DNA of 17,479 nucleotides, taken from contig CM119271.1 in assembly GCA_051294375.1 (NCBI GenBank), positions 2,671,245-2,688,723 of the forward strand. Direction: 5' to 3'. Under the pieces are notes generated by a model. It saw nothing but the letters and a program-made list of their open reading frames with translations, searched no databases and was not told the origin of the DNA. Both the position numbers and the translations under genes were made by a program. This DNA comes from Paraspadella gotoi (taxonomy: Eukaryota > Animalia > Chaetognatha). This document shows positions 1-16,262 of this stretch, piece after piece. The first letter of the stretch is position 1. Each line of letters opens with the position of its first letter.

Positions 1-589
1 GATATTTTCTAATGATTAATATTTCACGGAAATTTGCATATAAAGAGAATCCGAGATGATTCTATAAAGATTAGAGAGAAAGTTTAAAACCGATTTGTTA
101 TTTTAAAGAGAAAATCTCGTTGTTTGACTTCACTGACGGGGAATTAATGCAAGGCTTAGAAGGTTNNNNNNNNNNNNNNNNNNNNNNNNNNNNNNNNNNN
201 NNNNNNNNNNNNNNNNNNNNNNNNNNNNNNNNNNNNNNNNNNNNNNNNNNNNNNNNNNNNNNNNNNNNNNNNNNNNNNNNNNNNNNNNNNNNNNNNNNNN
301 NNNNNNNNNNNNNNNNNNNNNNNNNNNNNNNNNNNNNNNNNNNNNNNNNNNNAGAAAGAAAGAAAGAAAGAAAAAAAGAAAAAAAGAAAAAACAGAGAGA
401 GAGAAAGAGAGCGAAAGACAGAGAGAGAGAGTGAGAGAGAGCGAAAGGCAGAGAGAGAGCGGATTTTCGTCGGCGAAGCGGAATGGAATATTGTCGGGAC
501 ACGACGTCGCTTTTCCCCGACGACCATAAACTATTGTCGAGATAAGAATCGAAAAACTGGAAACTCGAATATTATTCACTGGGAATGAG

Positions 590-641
590 GGACGGACGGA
601 CGGACCGGACGGGACCGGACCGGACCGGACCGGACCGGATC
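590..641 (+). repeat. (GGAC)n/(GGACC)n microsatellite; inverted copy at about 15232-15286
   Basis: GGACGGACGGACGGACCGGAC...CCGGACCGGATC seen directly. Confidence 0.9.
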
Positions 642-950
642 GGAAAAGATCTTCCGGGGGCAACGCGTCGAGATTGAAGCGCGCATGAAGAGGGGGGGGG
701 GGAGGGGCGGGGGTTGTAGGTATGAAGAAGTAAAAGGGGGAGAATGGAAGGGTTAGTTCAGGGGTGGGAGATAAATGGCTTTAGGGTTTGAGATTTGAGG
801 TTTCAGGAGGGGGTAAGTGAGACTGGAGGAAGAAAGGTAAGGAGGCGCCCTGGGAAGAGAGAAAGATAAATTTGTGTTGCGCTCGGTATATAGGAGTAAG
901 TGAAGAAGGCCAGGTAGTTAGAATCGCCAGGAACGGCAAAATGTAAAGCT

Positions 951-1237
951 TGTGGATAACGGCGCTACGGTGGGCTGAGATGACTGTCCGTAATTCTTAT
1001 AACCCCCTCTAGCAGCCATGGAACGGGTCCCTGGGCTGTGGAACCAGCTGAGGGTTGCCATGCCCCCAAGGAAGGCTTACGGCCGTCCTCACGGCTTCCA
1101 TCAGGGTAGTACCAGGTTTGTGGAATTGAACCCGGTATCTGTGGTCATGAGCGATGGCTTACTCAATGAGCCACCGGGTCCACACTGAAATGTCCATGAA
1201 TTCTAGGCGGGGGTGAACCTAGGCAATGCCGGCTACA
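951..1237 (-). repeat. LTR copy (3'-most in element orientation), 287 bp
   Basis: Plus strand TGTGGATAA...CCGGCTACA; aligns by eye with the other three copies, differing mostly by 1-bp indels. Confidence 0.88.
1108..1180 (-). promoter_or_regulatory. tRNA-derived segment with Pol III internal promoter (A and B boxes) inside LTR; also at about 1526-1600, 1946-2021 and 2369-2448
   Basis: By-eye minus-strand consensus GACCCGG TGGCTCATTGAG TAAGCCATCAG CTCATGA CCACTAGATACCG GGTTCAATCCC AACCCGGTACC (72 nt). A-box-like motif starts at position 8, B box GGTTCAATCCC has TTC at 53-55, and CT-CAT-GA sits at the anticodon-loop position. Anticodon and T stems pair poorly, so this is a tRNA relic, not a functional tRNA. 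Confidence 0.75.
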
Positions 1238-1349
1238 TGCCCCCAGATTTGTAACCCACCCTGCACGTGCTTCAGCCTGGAGGGAGGGGAGCAATCTTCC
1301 AGCTAGACCAAGGGCCTGGAATCAGAAGGTTGGATACGCCTCGACAGGA

Positions 1350-1359
1350 GGGCTCACCA
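1350..1359 (-). promoter_or_regulatory. Primer-binding site, tRNA-Trp-like (also 1771-1780 and 2195-2205)
   Basis: Minus strand reads LTR end CA, one spacer C, then TGGTGAGCCC. This is a 9/10 match to TGGTGACCCC, the complement of the metazoan tRNA-Trp(CCA) 3' end as I recall it. Confidence 0.72.
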
Positions 1360-1360
1360 G

Positions 1361-1658
1361 TGTGGATAAGGGCGCTACGTGGGCTGAAGATGAACTGTTC
1401 CGTACTTATATATAACCCCCTCTAAGCAGCCAAAATGGAAACCGGTTTCCTGGGCTTTGGAACCAGGCTTGAGGTTTGCCATGCCCCCAAGGCGGCTTAC
1501 GGCCGTCCTCACGCTTCCCAGGGTAGGTACCGGGGTTGGGATTGAACCCGGTATCTAGTGGTCATCGAGCTTGATGCTTAACTTCAATGGCCACCGGTGC
1601 AACAACTGGAAAGTGCATGATTCTAGGCGGGGGTGAACCTAGGCAATGCCCGGCTACA
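1361..1658 (-). repeat. Internal LTR copy, 298 bp
   Basis: Plus strand TGTGGATAAG...CCGGCTACA, bracketed by the PBS and PPT of adjacent internal domains. Confidence 0.88.
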
Positions 1659-1666
1659 TCCCCCCC
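1659..1666 (-). promoter_or_regulatory. Polypurine tract (equivalents at about 1238-1244 and 2078-2086)
   Basis: Minus strand GGGGGGGA immediately precedes the LTR start TGTAG; the other copies are G-rich with one or two C interruptions. Confidence 0.7.
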
Positions 1667-1781
1667 AGATGTAACCCACCCTGCACTGCTTCCAGTGGAG
1701 GGATGGGGAGCAATCTTCAAGCTAGACCAAGGGCCTGGAATCAGAAGGTTGGAAATACGCTCGACAGGATGGGCTCACCAG

Positions 1782-2077
1782 TGGGATAAGGCGCCTACGT
1801 TGGGCTGGAAGATGACTGTCCGTAACTTCTATAACCCCTCTAGCAGCCATGGAACGGGTCCCGGGCTTGGAAACCAGGCGTTGAGGGTTTGCCATGCCAC
1901 CCAAGGCGGCTTTACCGGCCGTTCCTCACGCTTCCCGCAGGGGTAGGTACCGCGGTTGATTTTGAAACCGCGTATCATAGTTGGTCATGAGCTGAATGGC
2001 TTTCTCATGAGCCACCGGGTCCAAATGAAAGGTCATGATTCTAGCGGGGTGAACCTAGGGCAAATGCACCGGCTACA
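1782..2077 (-). repeat. Internal LTR copy, 296 bp
   Basis: Plus strand TGGGATAAG...CCGGCTACA, same internal motifs as the other copies. Confidence 0.88.
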
Positions 2078-2206
2078 TGCCGCCCCAGATTTGTAACCCA
2101 CCCTGCCACTGGCTTCCAGGTGGAGGGAAGGGGAGCAAATCTTCAGCTAACAAGGGCCTGGAATCAGAAGGGTTGGAATACGCTCGACAGGAATGGGCCT
2201 CACCAG

Positions 2207-2509
2207 TGTTGGATAAGGCGCTACGTGGGCTGAAGCATGACTGTCCGTAACTTTCTATAACCCCCGTCTAGCAGCAATGGAAGCGGGTCCCTGGGCTTGG
2301 AACCAGGCTTGAGGGGTTTGCCATGCCCCACAGGCCGTTACGGTCCGTCTCACGCTTCCGCAGGGTAAGGTTACCGGGTTGGGATTTGAACCCGGCTATC
2401 TAGTGGTCATGAGCTGATGGGCCTTTATCAATCAAGAGCCACCGGGTCACAACTGAGAAGTGTCTGATTCTAGGCGGGGGTGAAATTTAGGCACTGGCCC
2501 GGCCTAACA
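2207..2509 (-). repeat. LTR copy (5'-most in element orientation), 303 bp
   Basis: Plus strand TGTTGGATAAG...CCGGCCTAACA followed directly by the AGCT TSD. Confidence 0.85.
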
Positions 2510-2659
2510 AGCTTGCGGTTTTGGGCGAAATCGGTTGGGGATCAGTCTCTGGGGAAAGTTTGAGACTTTGGACGGAAAGTGAGTGGGCGGGAGGTTGTAC
2601 CCTGAGACGAGAGGGGGAGGAAGGGGGGGAGTGGGCTGGTTCAAGGAGAGGGAAGGCGG

Positions 2660-3059
2660 CTGGTCGGTCGTCCGGTCGGGTAGATTGGTCGGTCGTAGAT
2701 TGGTCTCGGTAGATTGGTCGGTCGGTAGATTGGTCGTCGGTAGATTGGTCGGTCGGTTAGATTGGTCGTCGGTAGAGTTGGTCCTCGTAGATTTGGTCGT
2801 CGGTAGATTGGTCGGTCCGGTAGATGGTCGGTCTGGTAGATTGGGTCCGGTCGGGGTAGATGGTCGTCGGTAGATTGGTCGGTCGGTAGATTGTCGGTCG
2901 GTAGATTTGGTCGTCGGTAGATTGTCGGTCGGTAGATTGGTCGGTCGGTAAGATTGGTCGGTCGGTAGATTGGTCGGTCGTAGATTGTCGGTCGTAGATT
3001 GGTCGGTAACTGTCGGTCGTAGATTGGTCGGTCGGTAGATTGGTCGGTCGGTAAGATTG
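2660..3059 (+). repeat. Minisatellite, 15-16-bp unit GGTAGATTGGTC(G)GTC
   Basis: Tandem copies visible directly; source of the PTN/RPT-rich spurious ORFs. Confidence 0.95.
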
Positions 3060-3155
3060 AATTTTCCCAGATGAGACACAGATATAATAACCCGAGGAGT
3101 TTCGCCTCTCTCTTCTCCCAACGATATCCAGAGTCGAAGATCGGACGTGAGCTCT

Positions 3156-3203
<48 letters not shown>

Positions 3204-3230
3204 AGAAAGAGAGAGGAGAAAGAGAGAGAG
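3156..3230 (+). repeat. (GA)n microsatellite; related CT/GA tracts at 353-460, 7513-7592, 10518-10708, 13965-14050 and 15415-15740
   Basis: Dinucleotide and purine/pyrimidine runs seen directly. Confidence 0.95.
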
Positions 3231-5239
3231 CAGCGCCGGAGCCAAAATTGAGAGAAAAAGGTTTGGTTTATAATCGAAAAGAAAGTGGGTTGGTTCGAAA
3301 AGGAAAAAAAAAAATCACATTTGTATCAGAAAGAATTTTTAAAGGAAAACTACCATTCTTATTTGAATTGTAATACATTATAAAAGTAATACATTAGCTA
3401 TAATGGACATTGCATTCTGGGTTGGAGAATTAGGATTGGCTCTGGGCTAGGGTGTTTTATTTGTTTTTAAAAAAATGCGTCTGAGTTTTTGACAAACGAC
3501 GACGTTAACTGAGAATAAATTAGTAAACGAAATAAGGAATAAACAAAAGGCTGTCGTAAGAGCGATAACCGGTTGTAAAATCTGGTGATGTACGAGATGG
3601 GAAAGAATTTTAAGGCGACTGCGGGGACCTTGATAGAAAAAAGGGAAAAAATGATCAACGAATAAGATAAGAAAATTTTAGATCCAATGATGCGTCGACA
3701 ATTACAATTTCGATAATTACATAATAAACTGAATTAATGTTCAATAATATCTTATTTAATATTAAGAAATGAATGTATAATTAATTTATTTTCTAGTTAG
3801 ATAAACACATTATTATAAGCAATCAGCAAAATTCAACATTTGTAAAACAATTCCGCATTCTAATTTTACTTATAAAATAGTTTAATAAAAAAAGTTTTGA
3901 TTGAAAGCTCATATGCATCATATGATACAATTCTTAATTCTTGATACAATTCTACAATTCTGCTACCATAGAGTGTCTAAGTCTGGAAAAATATAACCCA
4001 TTTATTATATAGTTATACCAATTCTATAAACAATTGAAAAAACTATTATATATCAATGATAAGTATACTCGTAAAAAGGAGGGATGCATCAACGCATTTA
4101 ATAAATAATGAAGAGACCAGAAAAGTCTGCGCGTCGTCGATTTTTTGAAAATCGACTTCCGTTCAAAACCGAAATTTAAAACCCGGTGCAATGCGTGGGC
4201 AGAGATAAAGAGTTTGGGGAGAAAAGGGGGAATAAATATAAATATAACAATACTATTTTTGATAAATTTTAGATAAAGATTAGTTGGAAAGTTGCCAAGG
4301 AAAATGACCAGAACATTGAAATAGGGGGGGGAGAATCGGGGTGTGTGTGAGATGGGAATCTTGTGAGTCACTCCAATCTTTAGAAAAAAAAATGTAATCT
4401 GAGGAAAATGGGTTTTCTTTAATCGATGCGACGTAAAAAGTAAATATTTGGAATTTGTTCGAGTGATAAGGATTGACGAAGCCTAACGGGACAGAAAGAT
4501 CGAGATAGACAGATAGAGATAGACAGATAGATAGACATTTAATTATTTATCGACGTTTACATATAAACAAATTATTTCCCTCTTTTAGCCACTGATGATC
4601 TTAGACTTAGAAATTAAGTCGAAATATATCGCAAAAAATTCAAATTTTTTTTGGTTTCTTTTGCACTGATACTCCATAGTGAAAATAAGTATTTAATTAA
4701 GCATTCTACTAGTGCATGTGATGACATTAAAGCAATTTATTTCCCTCAAAAGGAAAATCAATTTCAGGGTCGAACGAAAATACGAGACGCAATAGATTCA
4801 CCGTAAAATGAATTATGAAGGAGAAACTGACTCCAGAGTCGGAGTCGGTGGAATGGTGATTGTTGTTGTTGTCGTCGTTGTTTTAATCCATAGCCTCTAG
4901 AACTGGAAAGAGAACAATTTTTTTTTCAGTTAGTTATTTTGACAAGTGAATTAGAATACAAAATGCATGGCTTAATACTTTCTGAAAGACGGAAAGAAAG
5001 ATAAAAAGATAGCGAAAAAAGAAGGACAGAAAAGCGAATAGACAGACGGGAATGACTTAAAGAGATTCCATCCGAGATTAGAATAAAAAAGAAAAAAAAA
5101 AGAAAAGGAAAGAAAAATTAAAACTCAAATCAAAAGAAAAGTTTTGTTTTCGACGTTGTTGTTGTTGTTGTTCCTCGTCGCCGGGTCTTGAAAACGTCAG
5201 AGATAAGAACTGGAAATCCGAAATGACTCATCCGTTATT

Positions 5240-5983
5240 CTCCTCTCTATTTTTTCTTTCCTGTTATTTTCTTTTCTTTTCTTTCCTTTTTTTAAAAATA
5301 TTTTATTTTATCTTCTTTTATCTTCTTTTCTTTTCTTTTCTTTTCTTTTCTTTTCTTTCTCATCTCTTTTCTTCTCTTCTCTTTTCCTCTTCTCTTTTGT
5401 TTTCTTTTCTTTTTTTATTATATTTCTTCTCTTATCTCCTCCTCTTCTCTTCCCTTCTCTTCTTTCTCTTCTCTTCTTTTCTCTTCTCTCCTCCTTTTTT
5501 CTTTCTTTTCTTTTTTAATTCTCGCTTTTTTCTCTTATCTCCTTCTTCTATTCTCTTCTTTTCTCTTCTTTTCTCTTCTCTTCTCTTCTCTCTTCTCTTC
5601 TCTTCTCCTTCTCTTCTCTTCTCTTCTCTTCTTCTTCTTTTCTTTCTTCTCTCTCTCTCCTTTTCTCTTTTATTTTCTTTTATTCTCTTTTCTTCTCTTA
5701 TCTTCCTTCTCTTCTCTCTTCTTCTCTTCTCTTTTCTTCTTCCTCTTCTCTTCTCTTCTTTTCTCTTCTCTTCTCTTCTCTCCTTCCTTTCTCTTTTCTT
5801 TTCTTTTTTTTTATTCTTTTCTCTTCTCTATCTCCTTCTTTTCTCTTCTCTTCTCTCTCTTCTTTTCTCTTTCTCTTCTCTTCTCTTCTCTCCTCCTTCT
5901 CTTTTCTTTTCTTTTTTATTTCTCTTCTTCTCTTTTCTCCTCCTCTTCTCTTCTCTCTCTTTTTTTCTCTTTTTTCCTTTTCC
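5240..5983 (+). repeat. Long polypyrimidine low-complexity tract (TTCTC/TTTTC-like); purine mirror at about 11052-11880
   Basis: About 740 bp almost exclusively C/T. Confidence 0.95.
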
Positions 5984-5985
5984 AG

Positions 5986-6166
5986 GGAATGAATTCAGAG
6001 GAACCTGGGGAAGGGATCGGTTATGTGACAAACAGAATCAACTAATCACCTCATTGGACCTGAGATTAAAAATGCCTCTGTTGTATGACGGCGCGGATTA
6101 TCAAATGGTACAGGGCGATTTGGAAATAAATTTTAGATTTACAGAGGATTTTCAAAAATTGTTGTG
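5986..6166 (+). CDS. Candidate internal coding exon, product unknown (xNEFRGTWGRDRLCDKQNQLITSLDLRLKMPLLYDGADYQMVQGDLEINFRFTEDFQKLL)
   Basis: Polypyrimidine tract plus TTTCCAG acceptor (AG at 5984-5985), 181-bp open frame of normal complexity, G|GTGAG donor at 6167. A frameshifted or noisy inverted copy lies at about 10860-11050. No recognisable homology. Confidence 0.35.
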
Positions 6167-7406
6167 GTGAGGCTCATAGAGTAAACTCGTGGTGACTAAT
6201 ATTGAACAAATGTTCTTGTTAGTTGATACATTCGAACGTCAGATCCGAAGATTGAAATCTGGATTTAATGAAATGAGAATTTGGACAAGTTGCAGATTGT
6301 GATTTGANNNNNNNNNNNNNNNNNNNNNNNNNNNNNNNNNNNNNNNNNNNNNNNNNNNNNNNNNNNNNNNNNNNNNNNNNNNNNNNNNNNNNNNNNNNNN
6401 NNNNNNNNNNNNNNNNNNNNNNNNNNNNNNNNNNNNNNNNNNNNNNNNNNNNNNNNNNNNNNNNNNNNNNNNNNNNNNNNNNNNNNAAAGAAAGAGAGAG
6501 AGCAAGAGAGAGAGAGAGAGGAAGATTGAATGATCAAGTTATGATATTTGATAAATGGTGTTTGTTGTAACAATTTCTTTTAAAAACGGTTAAAGCGTGA
6601 CAAATAATAGTGAAACTGTTGACGCCTCACGGAACAATAACAGGGACTCATGTTAATATTTTAAATTTTTACCAAGTTGTTAAAACAAACCCTTCGTGTC
6701 AAGAAACCCAAATCGATATAAACGTTTTTCTTAGAATTAATTTTTTTTAACTGAGTTGATGATTTATGACTTCGTTCACAGTTTTTGGCTCAAAGAAAAA
6801 AGTATATGAAAAAAAATGTTATTTTTGAATTTTTGAGAATCGGAAAGCCTTTGATCTTTTTTCTTGTAATGGGAAAGGNNNNNNNNNNNNNNNNNNNNNN
6901 NNNNNNNNNNNNNNNNNNNNNNNNNNNNNNNNNNNNNNNNNNNNNNNNNNNNNNNNNNNNNNNNNNNNNNNNNNNNNNNNNNNNNNNNNNNNNNNNNNNN
7001 NNNNNNNNNNNNNNNNNNNNNNNNNNNNNNNNNNNNNNNNNNNNNNNNNNNNNNNNNNNNNNNNNNNNNNNNNNNNNNNNNNNNNNNNNNNNNNNNNNNN
7101 NNNNNNNNNNNNNNNNNNNNNNNNNNNNNNNNNNNNNNNNNNNNNNNNNNNNNNNNNNNNNNNNNNNNNNNNNNNNNNNNNNNNNNNNNNNNNNNNNNNN
7201 NNNNNNNNNNNNNNNNNNNNNNNNNNNNNNNNNNNNNNNNNNNNNNNNNNNNNNNNNNNNNNNNNNNNNNNNNNNNNNNNNNNNNNNNNNNNNNNNNNNN
7301 NNNNNNAAAAAAAAAAAGTATTTCATTGGTCTTTCTTTCTATTATTTCTTTCTCTCTTTCTGTATTTCTCTCTCTCATTCTTTCTTTCTTTCTTTCTTTC
7401 TTTCTT

Positions 7407-7568: not shown

Positions 7569-8046
7569 CTCTCTCTTCTCTCTCTCTCTCTTCCCCCTTT
7601 CCCATTTACAAAGAAGAAAGAATCAAAGGCTTTCCGATTCTCAAAAATCAAAAAATTAACATTTTTTTTCATTATACTTTTTTCTTTGAGCCAAAACTGT
7701 GAACGAGAGTCATAAATCCATCAACTCAAAAGTTAAAAAAAAATTAATTCGTAAGAAAAAACGTTTATATCGATTTGGCGTTTCCTTGACACGAGGCGTT
7801 TGTTTTTAACAACTTGGTGTAAAAATTCTAAAAATTTAACATGAGTCCCTGTTATTGTTCGCGTGATGGCGTCAACCAGTTTCACTACTTATTTGTGGTT
7901 TTTTTCCCAACGGCGGGGCTTTAACCGTTTTTAAAAGAAATTGTTACAACAAAACAACCATTTTATCAAATATTTCATAACTTGATCATTTCAATCTTCC
8001 TCTCATCTCTCTTCTCTTGCTCTCCCTCTCTTTCTTTTCGAATCGG

Positions 8047-8428
8047 GCAGGCCTTTCCATTATACTTGAAAGTTCGCCGGACCTCAATTTTCGGTCACTC
8101 TCTGATTGTTTTTCCGGTCAGCCTGCCGGCCTATTATGTTCTCCTTCCGTCCGCAGCCTTCTATGGTCGCCGCGACCTGGACCCGAACCTGACCCCGACG
8201 GCTCATTACTCTTCTCTTCTCTTCCCTTTCGTCCGCGGCATCCTGGGAACTTTTCCATGATCAGCAGTCCGGGCCTGATACCGACGAGCTGGAAAGTCGC
8301 GGTATTCGAGCTCTTTTTCTTTCTTTCCTTTTAATTCTCAAAAGAATCCAAAAAAATTAAGGGAAAAAAAATAAAATATATAAATAAAATAAATAAACAA
8401 AAAAGGAAGAAATAAATAAACAAATTGA
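8047..8428 (+). repeat. Direct repeat A1 (partner A2 at 9993-10345)
   Basis: Shared ACTTGAAAGTTCGCCGGACC...ATGATCAG...GATACCGACG...GAAAGTCGCGG, followed by an A-rich tail ending AAATT(T)GA. Confidence 0.9.
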
Positions 8429-9083
8429 ATAGTGAAGAAATATTACTCTGTCACAGGATCTCTCTCTTCTTCTCTATTATATCTTTATTTTTTTAAATTT
8501 TCTGATCTATACTTTTTCCACTTAAATTATTGTTTTCTATTTTTTTAATTTTTCGATTCTGTATCATTTGCTATTTAATATTTTTTCAACTTGAAACAAA
8601 AAAAATACCAATTTTCTATGTATAAAAATGATTTAAAAATTGATTAAAAAAGAATACTGGCTGCGTGAAATTGTTAGGCATTCCAAGACAACTGTTTTTG
8701 CTCGGGCTTGTTTCAGCTTCTGCTCCACTCTCCACTCTCGGTGTGAGAGTTAAAGCGACCTCTCAAAACAATTCGGTGATCGTGCCCAAAGGGCAGTCTT
8801 TCCCATGAACAAAAGATCAGAATGTTAAAAACTTTTGGCCCAAGACCTTTTTTCTCCAAAAAAAAAAAAAAACAAAAAACAAAAAAAAAAAAAAAAAATT
8901 TGATATTCTAGGAATCGAAATTTGAAATTAAAAAAGAAAGAAATCAATTAAAATGTGTTAAGTCAAGGGGGAAAAAAATATTTTTGTTTTTATTTGCCAC
9001 CACCCGTAAAGTGTTAATTTAAATCTAAATTAAATAAAATTTAAAAGGGATTAAAAATTTCATTAAATAGATGAATTGAACAC

Positions 9084-9190
9084 TGATGGAAGCCTTAAAC
9101 CACCAAAGCCTGTCCAAAGTCCAGGGGCAGAATAGCTTATTTATTAAATGAAATCGGATAACTTTTATATTTGATTGAACCAATTTCATA
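9084..9190 (+). repeat. Half copy of the 16049-16262 foldback element
   Basis: CACCAAAGCCTGTCCAAAGTC...ATAGCTTATTTATTAAATGAA...CCAATTTCATA shared with 16178-16263. Confidence 0.85.
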
Positions 9191-9819
9191 AGTCTTATTT
9201 AGTTAAAAGGAATGTTGGCTTGCAAGAGAAAATCACAGCGGCCGCAACAAGTTGGACCTTGCTGGTTTCTGTCTAATTTGGTTAATTTGCTTATAAAATT
9301 TGAGATGCAAAGGGCAAACGTTTTCAATTATTTTAAAATAATAATTTAATTTTGTGCACTATTTTAAATTTTTTTAACTTAATTTTTTGTAAACAAATGT
9401 TATTTTATTTCTTAATCGCCTTATTAACTCAATTTTATCATAACATTAAAAATCTTGATTTTGCCACAGCCAAAATAGATAACCTAGAAAAAACAACGAT
9501 GTTAAAAACAATTCCAACATTGTAATTAAGTTCATCTCTCTCTACTCTTTTGTCAATTTTTTTCCAACGTCAGCTTTTTACTGGTCAGACCAATAGCCTG
9601 TATTCCAAAAGTTATTTTATAATAGAGTTAGTTTGTTTCAAAAAAAAAATTATTGTTTGAAAATTTAAAATAAAAGAGATGTACCCAAAAAGGAAAACAA
9701 AAACAATGTTTTACATTTCATTTTTTCTATTCAACCTTCTATATAATAGTTTTAAAGAAAATAAGTAAAAATAATTTTCCCGTCCGCCGACCACGATCTC
9801 CGGACGTGATAGCCCGTTT

Positions 9820-9992
9820 GATCCGCGGATTCTCCCGATCAGAGATAATTTCTCTGAAACTCCGCGACCTCGAGTCCCGGCGGCAAAGATTGGCCGGCCG
9901 GGACGTGTCCGGCCATGGTGACAAAAAGGCCCTCCCGCCCGTGTCGCGGACACCATTGGCTTCTTAGCCGCGAATCCTCGAGTATACCCATG
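9820..9992 (+). repeat. Direct repeat B1 (partner B2 at about 10346-10511)
   Basis: Shared GCGGATT...TCAGAGATAATT...CTCGAGTCC...GGCGGCAAAGATTGGCCG...GTATACC(C)ATG. Confidence 0.9.
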
Positions 9993-10587
9993 GAGGCATA
10001 TTTACTTGAAAGTTCGCCGGACCATTTTCGCGTCACTCTATTGTTTTCCGCGCTGCCGGCTATTGTTCTCTCCGTCCGCCGGCTCAGGTCGCCGGACCCT
10101 GACCCGAAACCTCGCACCCCGACCTGGCTCACTACTCTTCTCTTCTTCTCTCCCTTTCCGCCGCGGCATCCGGACCTTTTATGATCAGAGTCCGGCGATA
10201 CCGACGTGAGCTGAAAGTCGCGGGATCGAGTTCTCTTTTTCTTCTCTTTCCTTTAATCTCAAAAGAATAAAAAAATAGGAAAAATAAAATTGATAAATAA
10301 AATAATTAAAACAAAAAAAGAAGGAAATAAAATAACAAAATTTGACAGGCGGATTTCTTCCCGAGTTTCAGAGATAATTCTCTGAATCCGCGACTCGAGT
10401 CCGGGGCGGCAAAGATTGGCCGCCGACGTGGTCCGGCGACATGGTCGGACAAAAGGCTCGGGTGTCCGGACCCACCATGGCCTTTCTAGCCGCGATCTGA
10501 GGTATACCATGTTTTCGTTTCTTGCTCTCTCTCGTTCGCTCTCTCTTTTCTCTCTTACTCTCTCTCTTGCTCTCTCCTCTTTCTCTC

Positions 10588-10623
<36 letters not shown>

Positions 10624-13600
10624 CTCTCGTTGCTCTCTTCTCTCTCTCTATCTCTTGCTCTCTCTCTCTCTCTCTCTCTTCTCATCTCTCTCTCTCTCTC
10701 TCTCTCTCAAATTCACAATCTGCAACTTGTCCAAATTCGTTCATTTCATTAAATCCAGATTTCAATCTTCGGATCTGGACCCGTTCGAATGTATCAACTA
10801 ACAAAAAAGAACATGTTTTGGTTCAATATTAGTCACACGAGTTTACTCTATGAGTCTCACCAACAAACAATGAAAATCCTTCTGTAATCTAAATTTATTT
10901 TCCAAATCGCCCTGCTACCATTTGATCAAATCCGCGCCGTTCATACACACCGGAGGCATTTTTAATCTTCAGTCCAATGAGGTGATTATGTTGATTCTAT
11001 TCTTCACATAACCGATCCCTTCCCCAGGTTCCTCTGAATTTCACTTCCCCTGAAAAGGAAAAAAGAAGCGAAAAAAAGAGCATAGAGAAGAGAAGCAGGA
11101 GGGAGAAAAGCAGGAAGAAAAGAGAATAACAAACCCAGAACAAGAAAAGAGAAGATACGCCGAGGAGAGAAGAGAAGAGAGAAGAAGAACGAGAAAAAGA
11201 AGAGAAGAGAAGAGAAGAGAAAAAGATATGGGACGCAGCAATAAGAGAAGGAAAACGAGAATCAAAAAAAGAAAAGAGAAGGAGGAAACGCGGGGGAAGA
11301 AGAAACGAGAAGAGAAGGGGGAGATAGCAGAAGAGAAGAGCAAGAGCAGAAGAGAGACGAGAGAGAGAGAGAAGAGAGCCAGAAGAGAAGAGAGAGGAAG
11401 GAGATAAGAGATGAACAAGGAGCAATAAAAAGACAAATAAAAGAGCCGAACCAGGCGAGCACAGAGGACAGAGAAAAGAGAAGAGAAGAGAAGAGCAAGA
11501 GAAAGAGAAGAGAAGAGAGAGAAGAGAACCGCCAGAAAAGAGAACACAGAGAGAAAAGAAGAAAGGAATGAGGAAGGAGATAAGAGAAGAAGAGAATTAA
11601 AAAAGAAAAGAAAAGAAAAAGAAGGGAGAGAAAGGAAAAAAGAGAAGGAGGAAAGAACGAGAAGGGAAGAAGAGGAGGAGAATAGCAGAAGAAAATATAA
11701 TAAAAAGAAAAGAAAACAAAAGAGAAGAGGAAAAGAGAAGAGAAGAAAAGAGATTGAAGAAAGAAAAGAAAGAAAAGAAAAGAAAGAAAAGAGATAAAAG
11801 AAGATAAAATAAAATATTTTTTAAAAAAAGGGAAAGAAAGAAAAGAATAAAACAGGATAAGAAAAAAATAGAGAGGAGAATAACAGAATGAGTCATTTCG
11901 GATTCAGTTCTTATCTCTGACGTTTCAAAGACCTGGCGACGAGGAACACAACAACAACAACGACGAAACAAAAACTTTCTTCTTTTTGATTTGAGTTTTA
12001 ATTTTCTGTATCCTTTTTATTTTCTTTTATTCTAATCTCGGACTGGAATCTCTCTTCTTAAGTCATTCCTGTCATGTCTATCTGCTTTTCTGTTCCTTCT
12101 TCTTTCGCTATCTTTTTAACTTTCTTTTCTGAATTCGAGAAAACTATACGCCAATTGCATTTTGTATTCTAATTCACTTGTCAAAAAATAACTAACTGAA
12201 AAAAATCATGTTCTCTTTCCAGTTCTAGAGGACTCTGGATTAAAACAAAGACGACAACAACAACAATCACCGCATTTCCATCGGACCTCGACCTCTGCGA
12301 GTCAGTTTCTCCTTCATAATTCATTTACGGTGAAATCTATTGCGTCTCGTATTTTCGTTTCGACCCTGAAATTGATTTTCGCTTTTGAGGGAAATAATGC
12401 TTAATATGTTCATCACATGCACTAGTAGAATGCTTAATTAAATACTTATTTCACTATGGAGTATCAGTGCACAAACAGAAACCCAAAAAAAATTTTGAAT
12501 TTTTTGCCGATATATTTCGACTTTTAATTTCTAAGATCTAGATCTATCAAGTGGCTAAAAGAGGGAAATAATTTGTTTATATGTAAACGTCGATAAATAA
12601 TTAAATGTTTCTATCTTATCTGTCTATCTTCTATCTGTCTATCTCGAATCATTTCTGTTCCCCGTTAGCTTCGTCAATCCTTATCACTCGAACAAATTTC
12701 CAAATATTTACTTTTTACGCTCGTATCGATTAAAGGCAAAACCCATTTTCCTCAGATTACATTTTTTTTTCTAAAAGATTGGAGTGGACTCACAAGATTC
12801 CATCTCACACACACCCCGATTCTCCCCCCCCCTATTTCAAATGTTTCTGGTCATTTTTCGCTTGGCAACTTTCCAACTAATCTTTATCTAAAATTTATTC
12901 AAACAATAGTTATTGTTATATTTATATTTATTCCCTTTTTTCTCCCCAAACTCTTTATCTCTGCCCCGCACTGCTATCGGGTTTTAAATTTCGGTTTTGA
13001 ACGGAAGCTCGATTTTCAAAAAGATCGACGACGCGAAGACTTTTCGGGTTTCTTTCATGTATTTATTGAAAATGCGTTGGGCAGCATCCCTCCTTTTTTA
13101 CGGAGTATACGTTATCATTGCAATATATAATAGTTTTTTTAATTGTATTTATAAGAATTTGGTACAACCAGTATTAATAAATTGGGTTACCTTTTTTCCA
13201 GACTTAGACATGCTATGGTAGAAAGGACATTGTAGAATTGTCCCATAAGAATAGAATTGTATCATATGATGCAAACAGGCTTTTCAATCAAAACTTTTTT
13301 ATTAAACTATTTTTAAGTAATAATAGAATGCAGTAATTGTTTTACAAATGTTGAATTTTGCCTGGATTGCTGATAATAATGTATTTATCTAACAAGAAAA
13401 TAGAATTTTATAATTTAAATAAGATATTATTGAACATTAATTCAGTTTATTACGTAATTATCGAAATTGTAATTGTCGTACGCATCATTGGATCTATAAA
13501 TTTTCTTATCTTCATTACGTTTAGATCATTGTTCCCTTTTTCTATTCAAGGTCCCCGCAGTCGCCTTAAAATTTCTTTCCCATCTCGTACGATCGACCAG

Positions 13601-13996
13601 ATTTTACAACCGGTTATCGCCTCTTACGAACAGCTTTTGTTTTTTCCTTATTCGGTTTACTATTTATTCTCAGTTAATCGTCGTCGGTTGTCAAAAACTC
13701 TGACGCCATTTTTTTAAAAACAATAAACACCCTAGCCAGAAGGCAATCCCTAATTCTCCAACCCATTCTGCAAAATCGTCCCATTATAGCTTAATGTTAT
13801 TACTATTTATAATGTATTACAATTCAAAGTAAGAATGGTAGTTCCTTTAAAAATTCTTTTCTGATACAACATGTGATTTTTATTTTTTTCCTTTTCGAAC
13901 CAACCTCACTTTCTTTTTCGTTTTAAAAACCAAACCTTTCTCTCAATTTTGGCTCCGGGCCGTGCTCTCTCTTCTCTCTCTCTCTCTCTCTGCTCT

Positions 13997-14050
<54 letters not shown>

Positions 14051-14159
14051 AGAGGCTCACGTCCGATCTTCGACTCTGGATGATCGTTGGATAAGAGCAG
14101 AGGCGAATCTTCCTCCGGGTTATTTATATCTGTGTCTCATCTGCGGAAAATTCGTTCTT

Positions 14160-14757
14160 CTCCGACCGACCAATCTATAGTCGACCGACCAATTCTACGA
14201 AACCGACAATCTACCGACCGACCTAATCTACGACCGACCAATCTACCGCACGACCATTCTACCGACCGAACCATCTACCGACCGACCAATCTACGACCGA
14301 CCAATCTACCGGATCCTGCATTCTACGACCCGACCAACTATACCGACCGACAATTACCGAGGTCCGACCAATGTCTACCGACCGACCAATTCATAACCGA
14401 CCGACCAATCTACGAACCCGACCAATCTACAGACCGACCATCTACCGATCCGACCAATCTACCGATCCCGACCAATCTTACCGAGCGACAATTCTTACGA
14501 CCGACCAATCTTACCGACCCGACCATCTTACCCGGACCGACCAATCTACCGACCCGACCAATTCTACGACCGAGCCATCTACCACGACCAATCTTACCGA
14601 GGCGACCAATCTACCGACCGACCAATCTACCGATCCGACAATGCTACCTCGATCCCGACCAATCTACCGACCGACCAATCTACCGACCGACCAATCTATC
14701 CGACCGACCAATTCCGAGCCGACCAAGTCTACCGAGCCGATAAGCTCGACCGACCAG
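14160..14757 (-). repeat. Minisatellite, reverse-complement copy (GACCGACCAATCTACC)n, longer and noisier
   Basis: Same unit in the right arm; about 600 bp vs about 400 bp. Confidence 0.92.
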
Positions 14758-15673
14758 CCGCCTTCCCTCCTCCTTGAACCAGCCCACTCCCCCCCTTCTC
14801 CCCCCTCTCGTTCTCAGGGCTACAACTCCCCGCCCACTCACTTTCCTTTCCAAGAGTCTCAAACTTTCCCCAGAGACTGAATCTCCCACCCGATTTCGCC
14901 AAAACCGCCAAGCTTTACTTTTGCGTTCCTTGGTCTGGATGCTAACTTACCTTGCTCTTCACAGTACTTCACTATACCGACGCAACCACAAAATTCATCT
15001 TTTCTCTCTCCCAGGCCGCGCTTACCATTTCTTCTCCAGTCTCAGCGTCGACCTCCCTCCTAAACCTCATAAATCCCTCTGCAACCCTAAAACCATTTAT
15101 CCCCACCCTCCCCTGAACTAACCCTTCCATCTCTTCCCTTTATCTTGCTTATACCTACAATTCCCCCCTCTCGCCCCCCTTCTTTCATGCGCGCTTCAAA
15201 TCTCGACGCGTGCCCCGGAAGATCTTTCCCGATCCGCGTCCGGTTCCGGTCCGGTCCGGTCCCGTCCCGGTCCGTCCGTCCGTCCCTCGATTCCCGTGAA
15301 TAATATTTCGAGTTTCCAGTTTTTCGATTCTTATTCGACAATAGTTTATGGTTCGTCGGGAGACGCGACGTCGTGTCCGACAATATTCCATTCCGCTTCG
15401 CCGACGAAAACTCGCTCTTCTCTGTCTTCGCTCTCTCTCATCTCCTTTCTTTTTTCCTCTCTTTCTTCTCTTCTTTCTTTTTTCTTTCTTTCTTTTCTTC
15501 TCTTTTTTTTCTTTTCTTTTCTTTTTTCTTTTTTCTTTCTTTCTTTTCTTTCTTCTTTCTTTTTTTCTTTCTTCTTCTTTTCTTTTTTCTTTTCTTTCTC
15601 TCTCTCTTCTTCTCTCTTCTCTCTCGTCTCTCTCATCTCTCTCTCTCTCTCTTCTCTTCTCTCTCTCTCCTTG

Positions 15674-16048: not shown

Positions 16049-16262
16049 ATGAAATTGTTACAACCAATACAACATTATCCATTCCTTTAATAACTAAGCT
16101 ATCTTGCCCCTGACTTAGGACAGGCTCTGAAGGTTTAAGGCCTTCATCACTATTACAAGGTAATACCTTAATATAAACACCAAAGCCTGTCCAAAGTCAA
16201 GGCCAAGATAGCTTATTTATTAAATGAATGGATAATTTTTATATTGATTGTGCCAATTTCAT
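16049..16262. mobile_element. Foldback/MITE-like palindromic element, 214 bp
   Basis: Arms 16049-16129 and 16181-16262 are reverse complements (about 85% by eye, mostly substitutions); central perfect hairpin TATTAC-AAG-GTAATA at 16151-16165; dispersed half copy at 9084-9190. No clear TSD. Confidence 0.65.

Follow-up and report, generated by a model that had tools for sequence, protein, structure and literature searches.

What is the head-to-tail repeat at positions 951–2509 of the Paraspadella gotoi sequence that we analyzed, did it arrive in one piece, and from which promoter would it be transcribed? The whole analyzed stretch (17,479 nt; NCBI GenBank assembly GCA_051294375.1, contig CM119271.1, positions 2,671,245–2,688,723 of the forward strand) is referred to as the window. 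We consider it fairly likely that the repeat is a gene-less miniature LTR element of the Helenus type (TRIMp3), arranged as a tandem with four LTRs, inserted once at an AGCT site, and carrying a decayed tRNA-derived segment as its likely Pol III promoter.

TRF detected a repeat with a period of 420 and 3.7 copies at 951–2484. Together with alignments, this resolved the following parts, listed from the 5′ end of the element.

951–2509, minus strand: tandem TRIM array with four LTRs separated by three internal parts (L4I3)
2207–2509, minus strand: 5′-most LTR, begins with TG, 303 nt as read
2078–2206, minus strand: internal part 1, with a PBS-like motif, a spacer and a G-rich PPT
1781–2077, minus strand: second LTR, 297 nt as read, with the noisiest box B
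1659–1780, minus strand: internal part 2
1361–1658, minus strand: third LTR, 298 nt as read
1238–1360, minus strand: internal part 3
1350–1359, minus strand: PBS-like TGGTGAGCCC, one base past the LTR; further copies at 1771–1780 and 2195–2205
1238–1249, minus strand: short G-rich polypurine tract ahead of the LTR
951–1237, minus strand: 3′-most LTR, 287 nt, TGTAG...CCACA

The LTRs measure 287–303 nt and the internal parts 122–129 nt, and the monomer is about 700 nt. The LTR termini are TG..CA, with the LTR at 1781 reading one base short. A TGG-led PBS-like motif stands right behind the LTR in all three internal parts, and 7–9 of the final 12 bases of each internal part are purines (n = 3). 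The PBS-like motif differs from every PBS in Fig. S2 of PMC10886601, the nearest being that for tRNA-Trp, which it matches at nine of ten bases; no report of it as a primer binding site was found in the literature searched. The array has no protein-coding capacity: its longest stop-free frames span 59–123 codons, the maximum on the element strand is 70 codons, and an internal part offers only about 125 nt. Inspection by eye of the window's list of open reading frames identified no convincing protein gene.

The window is eukaryote-like and of raw-read quality, with N gaps and 10–13 gap columns per 100. The four LTRs share 80–85% identity, and their alignment has 13 gap columns per 100; the six LTR pairs show 18 transitions versus 75 transversions. 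These differences have the pattern of read errors and not of ageing, suggesting that the true LTR sequences are probably near-identical. The element is 56% GC with a CpG observed/expected ratio of 0.56, whereas its flanks are 32–37% GC with ratios of 1.0–1.3; this contrast may stem from methylation of the family in the past or from an origin in another host.

The surroundings of the array bear on whether it moved as a unit.

947–950, no strand: target-site duplication AGCT, left copy
2510–2513, no strand: target-site duplication AGCT, right copy
14911–14914, no strand: empty site in the inverted duplicate of the locus, with a single AGCT and the flanks joined without the element
2673–3059 and 14162–14740: 16-nt tandem repeat, 24.9 copies in one arm versus 34.5 in the other

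A single target-site duplication (TSD) encloses the whole array, indicating one insertion event; the tandem form described in a first-pass annotation of this DNA is borne out as L4I3 under one AGCT duplication. The insertion site reads AAGCTT, a palindrome, and the TSD length of 4 bp therefore rests on the canonical TG..CA ends. Self-comparison revealed that positions 464–6878 (about 6.4 kb) recur in inverted orientation at 7596–15410. Identity between the two arms is 87%, their alignment contains 11 gap columns per 100, and their differences are of the indel type. The inverted copy of the locus holds the empty site, which shows that the insertion is real and young; this empty site, which the first-pass annotation does not mention, is the strongest evidence for movement of the element. 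The copy number of the 16-nt repeat differs between the arms, and they are therefore not two passes of one molecule. We infer that the arms are two haplotypes set head to head, or two paralogues; the inverted duplication itself probably reflects head-to-head scaffolding of two haplotypes or of raw reads. Whether the arms are haplotypes or paralogues, the insertion postdates their split.

The raw-read quality, the N gaps and the large inverted duplication also raise the question of whether the array arose as an artefact of sequencing or assembly, through a chimeric or looped long read. However, the junction of the flanks is exactly that of the empty copy plus one added AGCT, the arms differ in their 16-nt repeat count, and head-to-tail units with shared LTRs are a known biological form (PMC4717578). 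An artefact is thus highly improbable.

No second copy of the element was found elsewhere in the window. Two other repeats were observed there: GC-rich direct repeats between the inverted arms (8063–8331 with 10003–10254 and 9839–9926 with 10368–10454, 79–84% identical), and an AT-rich, MITE-like long hairpin at 16081–16229 with a partial second copy at 9061–9190, which gave a sub-threshold match to MIR7504. The 16-nt repeat had no match in the viral and prokaryote collections. A 21-mer of the internal part matched one metagenome contig (L001), which is unrelated and shares only 22 nt, and the same 21-mer had no match among viral contigs. A 21-mer of the LTR had none among prokaryote genomes, and blastn against phages returned two weak matches (E 0.2 and 9).

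The LTRs contain a tRNA-like segment of 69–77 nt that starts at LTR positions 57–62, in the same sense as the PBS and PPT, which agrees with the earlier placement of such a segment about 57 bp inside each LTR in element sense. We scored it with a profile of box A, the anticodon loop and the T arm. The profile was trained on 18 tRNAs of phage T5, taken from 21 aligned T5 matches after one tRNA-like RNA and two tRNAs with a long arm had been excluded; its spacing windows were set wide, with the noise of the data known beforehand. The four segments are given with their profile score and the number of shuffles scoring as high.

2372–2448, minus strand: tRNA-like segment of the LTR at 2207; box A from 2441, box B 2383–2391; 25.9 bits, 0 of 2000 shuffles
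1949–2021, minus strand: tRNA-like segment of the LTR at 1781; full box A consensus 2004–2014, box B garbled; 9.6 bits, 425 of 2000
1528–1600, minus strand: tRNA-like segment of the LTR at 1361; box A from 1593, box B 1539–1547; 17.5 bits, 7 of 2000
1112–1180, minus strand: tRNA-like segment of the LTR at 951; box A from 1173, box B 1123–1131; 27.1 bits, 0 of 2000

These four copies represent one sequence read with errors and not four independent observations. The first half of box A, TRGCY, was found in all four LTRs, its second half, YGG, in none, and the full box A TRGYnnAnnnG in one. Box B in its canonical consensus GWTCRAnnC (PMC4333407) was found in three LTRs, the LTR at 1781 having an extra T, and GGTTC was likewise found in three. 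CTCATGA was also present in three LTRs, with one G inserted in the LTR at 1361. The first-pass annotation had assigned the segment to every LTR, with an A box, a B box and CT-CAT-GA at tRNA spacing. By alignment the segment is indeed present in four of four, although its motifs are intact in only three; the three modules lie at tRNA spacing, and the profile is significant in three LTRs. Agreement among the four copies at this single locus is about level along the LTR and does not show the boxes to be better conserved than the rest.

In 5000 dinucleotide shuffles per LTR (two LTRs, either strand), TRGCY followed by GGTTC occurred in 4.7–5.9%, the version extended to GGTTCRA in 0.4–0.5%, and that extended to GGTTCRANNC in 0.1–0.2%. 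With the profile, the segments of the LTRs at 951, 2207 and 1361 took ranks 1–3 in the window on both strands, ahead of a next site at 14.7 bits, while the segment of the LTR at 1781 was not significant. The real T5 tRNAs scored 15–32 bits in 17 of 18 cases when each was left out in turn, and two segment scores fall inside the range of real T5 tRNAs.

General tRNA finders gave a different picture. Rfam reported no tRNA in the window, the array or one 101-nt segment (E up to 5–10), and the pseudo-tRNA-level match to RF00005 that had been predicted was absent on these single noisy copies; ARAGORN also found no tRNA. Two covariance models, R1 and R2, were built from T5 tRNAs and are thus of bacterial type; they too were run on single noisy copies. 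With R1, positions 2372–2447 were the top match in the window, full-length and marginal (E 0.04), and the refined R2 recovered only a T-arm piece (E 0.2), third in the window after two unrelated matches. As annotated earlier, the cloverleaf stems are decayed, with at best 5/7, 3/4, 2/5 and 3/5 pairs. All four copies are predicted to fold as two long hairpins (z −1.55 to −3.20, for a segment picked post hoc). The segment cannot yield a working tRNA, and the folding model places two long hairpins in its stead. Retention of the boxes with loss of the stems is the pattern described for Helenus (PMC10886601). The reading of CAT in the loop is insecure, since Kojima reads a similar CTCATGA in a rust Helenus as the anticodon ATG (PMC10886601).

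The predicted fold also suggests another origin of the likeness. It is common to the four copies and pairs the box A arm with the CTCATGA arm, next to a stem around the box B loop, so that the likeness to a tRNA could in part be a coincidence of two inverted repeats, the "anticodon loop" being simply the strand that pairs with the box A arm. The blank results of Rfam and ARAGORN fit this explanation, as does a three-motif scan of viral contigs, in which neither of the two matches was called a tRNA. In contrast, box A and box B, even when the anticodon module is disregarded, occurred together in only 0.1–0.5% of shuffles, and the three modules lie at tRNA spacing in element sense. Coincidence is therefore improbable, and the motif and profile analyses support the derivation of the LTR segment from a tRNA.

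A further tRNA-like feature was observed on the plus strand of the internal part. At 1320–1360, a 12-nt motif that occurs in tRNA 3′ halves lies upstream of the PBS complement, and the same region is present ahead of 1781 and 2207. A scan with this motif and a tRNA-end motif returned two matches, both tRNAs. The region could be what remains of a longer, degenerate copy of the primer tRNA, but its spacing varies from 17 to 19 nt, its T arm misfits and its tRNA profile score is low. We also considered self-priming and rejected it: box A shares only 6 nt with the PBS complement when compared by eye, and a unit-length RNA folds no better than its shuffles do (z 0.80).

If the segment acts as a promoter, TFIIIC would bind box A and box B in the LTR, and Pol III would initiate near LTR position 55–60. 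After crossing the internal part and the following LTR, the RNA would likely end at the first T run in the flank. A host tRNA would then prime reverse transcription at the PBS, and the reverse transcriptase and integrase would be supplied by an autonomous LTR element, probably of the Gypsy type; Kojima infers a Gypsy-type partner for Helenus with a 4-bp TSD (PMC10886601). The tandem array may have formed at insertion, or afterwards via unequal recombination between LTRs. A copying step and later LTR recombination are both left open as origins of such arrays in PMC7215508 and PMC11899658.

The distribution of possible stop signals is relevant to this proposal. On the sense strand of the array, a single T4 run is present, at 1435 in one copy, and the other three copies are without one. 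The nearest candidate stop lies in the flank.

938–941, minus strand: first T4 run downstream of the element, candidate Pol III stop

This run lies 10 nt into the flank and exists in the empty copy too. Alu RNAs likewise end at the first downstream T run, past the element (PMC4333407). The absence of T4 from the element suggests that a Pol III RNA would read through and have an R region spanning about 230 nt; within the array, read-through would result in multi-unit RNAs. This absence is weak evidence, because 44% of shuffled units also lack T4 (56% contain it). A stronger version, in which the element is a terminator-less Pol III element, every LTR fires a transcript that extends to the flanking T run and the tandem retrotransposes as a whole, is doubtful. 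If true, it would explain both the tandem arrays and the highest copy number of zebrafish LTR-11_DR, and the filled and empty copies described here would be a ready test locus. By eye, the LTR-11_DR consensus in PMC10886601 contains no T4 run. A scan with bacterial promoter and terminator models, which are not suited to eukaryote DNA, detected nothing.

Pol III transcription of tRNA-bearing TRIMs is a proposal, which according to Kojima is unvalidated for Helenus overall (PMC10886601); the earlier description of the family as Pol III-driven goes further than the sequence does. The array could accordingly be an ordinary Pol II TRIM, with an inert tRNA or SINE-head relic in its U3 and a transcription start near LTR position 265–270. 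A feature shared by the LTRs would suit this reading.

996–1001, minus strand: TATA-like motif that precedes the LTR 3′ end by about 50 nt, at the same place in the four LTRs

The motif lies at LTR positions 237–251 in all four LTRs, and the second half of box A is degenerate, as a relic would allow. However, with a start so near the LTR end, R plus U5 would shrink to about 20–25 nt; neither AATAAA nor ATTAAA is present on the sense strand of the array, which thus lacks a canonical polyadenylation signal; and box B is intact although the cloverleaf is gone. Pol II transcription is a possible reading that we do not favor, and we retain the Pol III promoter as the likely one.

A very young copy together with its empty counterpart points to a family that is probably active, in which Pol III use and the origin of tandem arrays could be tested. 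Otherwise, the element adds one more family to a class with over 200 listed in Table S1 of PMC10886601.

Several known systems share part of this organization. Cassandra, a plant TRIM, carries in its LTR a promoter derived from 5S RNA (boxes A and C) and a terminator, and its transcription has been shown (PMC7215508). The present element resembles it in a putative Pol III-type promoter in the LTR and in LTR-internal-LTR arrays with shared LTRs; in contrast to Cassandra, its segment is of the tRNA type and no terminator is evident. No 5S match, as expected of the 5S rRNA-derived LTR segment of Cassandra and Ajax, was found in the Rfam scans. Tandem TRIMs are common. In plants, Gao et al. (2016; PMC4717578) described TA-TRIMs, whose arrays, from L3I2 to L5I4, share LTRs and are enclosed by a single TSD, as is the present array. 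Cassandra excepted, no small-RNA-derived promoter is reported for TA-TRIMs in the available text of PMC4717578, whereas the present array has a candidate one. Retrozymes carry a hammerhead ribozyme in the LTR; the element strand of all four LTRs was without a CTGANGA core, an antisense match occurred in one of the four, and Rfam reported no hammerhead. By eye, a hammerhead-like core (CTGATGA ... GAAAC) follows the tRNA-like piece in two LTRs of Data S1 of PMC10886601, Helenus-2_SyJa-LTR and Helenus-2_SyUm-LTR; the accessible text of that paper does not mention this core.

The tRNA-derived SINEs (SINE2) have a tRNA head with boxes A and B and decayed stems, and their Pol III RNA extends to the first downstream T run, as proposed for the present element. 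Unlike SINE2, this element lacks both a LINE-type 3′ end and a tail that is A-rich or made of repeats, and its segment is embedded in an LTR with a PBS, a PPT and an integrase-type 4-bp TSD.

The closest relatives are found in Helenus (TRIMp3), which Kojima (2024, Biology 13:119; PMC10886601) defined as TRIMs of less than 1 kb with tRNA-derived sequence in their LTRs and with TSDs of 4 bp in animals and 5 bp in fungi and a plant. The mention in the first-pass annotation of tRNA-bearing TRIMs with 4-bp TSDs in animals agrees with this published definition. Like Helenus, the present element has a monomer of less than 1 kb, an LTR tRNA-like segment with TRGCY and GGTTC, a PBS, a PPT, a non-functional cloverleaf and the 4-bp TSD of the animal families; its LTR length, monomer length and TSD lie inside the Helenus range. 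Its tandem arrangement is shared with zebrafish LTR-11_DR, the most numerous Helenus family, for which tandem arrays are reported (PMC10886601). Most Helenus families carry TRGCY, GGTTC and also YGG in box A (PMC10886601); the present element lacks YGG, a typical and not a defining trait. In most Helenus LTRs, compared by eye and in part, the tRNA-like piece comes late and a T run follows soon after, whereas here it lies in the first third of the LTR with no T4 run behind it.

In Data S1 of PMC10886601, where line breaks can hide matches, seven of ten motifs from the window were absent and the other three gave generic matches, and none of the families compared by eye resembles the present element. 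This agrees with the earlier view that the family is probably uncatalogued. The literature searched held no later description of TRIMp3, Helenus or tRNA-derived TRIMs. The nearest layout is that of Synergus Helenus-2, with a 277-nt LTR, an early tRNA-like piece and a tRNA-Trp PBS, and without evident sequence likeness. All testable defining features of Helenus given in PMC10886601 are present in this element. The element is a real, young, tandem Helenus-type TRIM, and it probably represents an uncatalogued Helenus family, new as a family and not as a kind of element.
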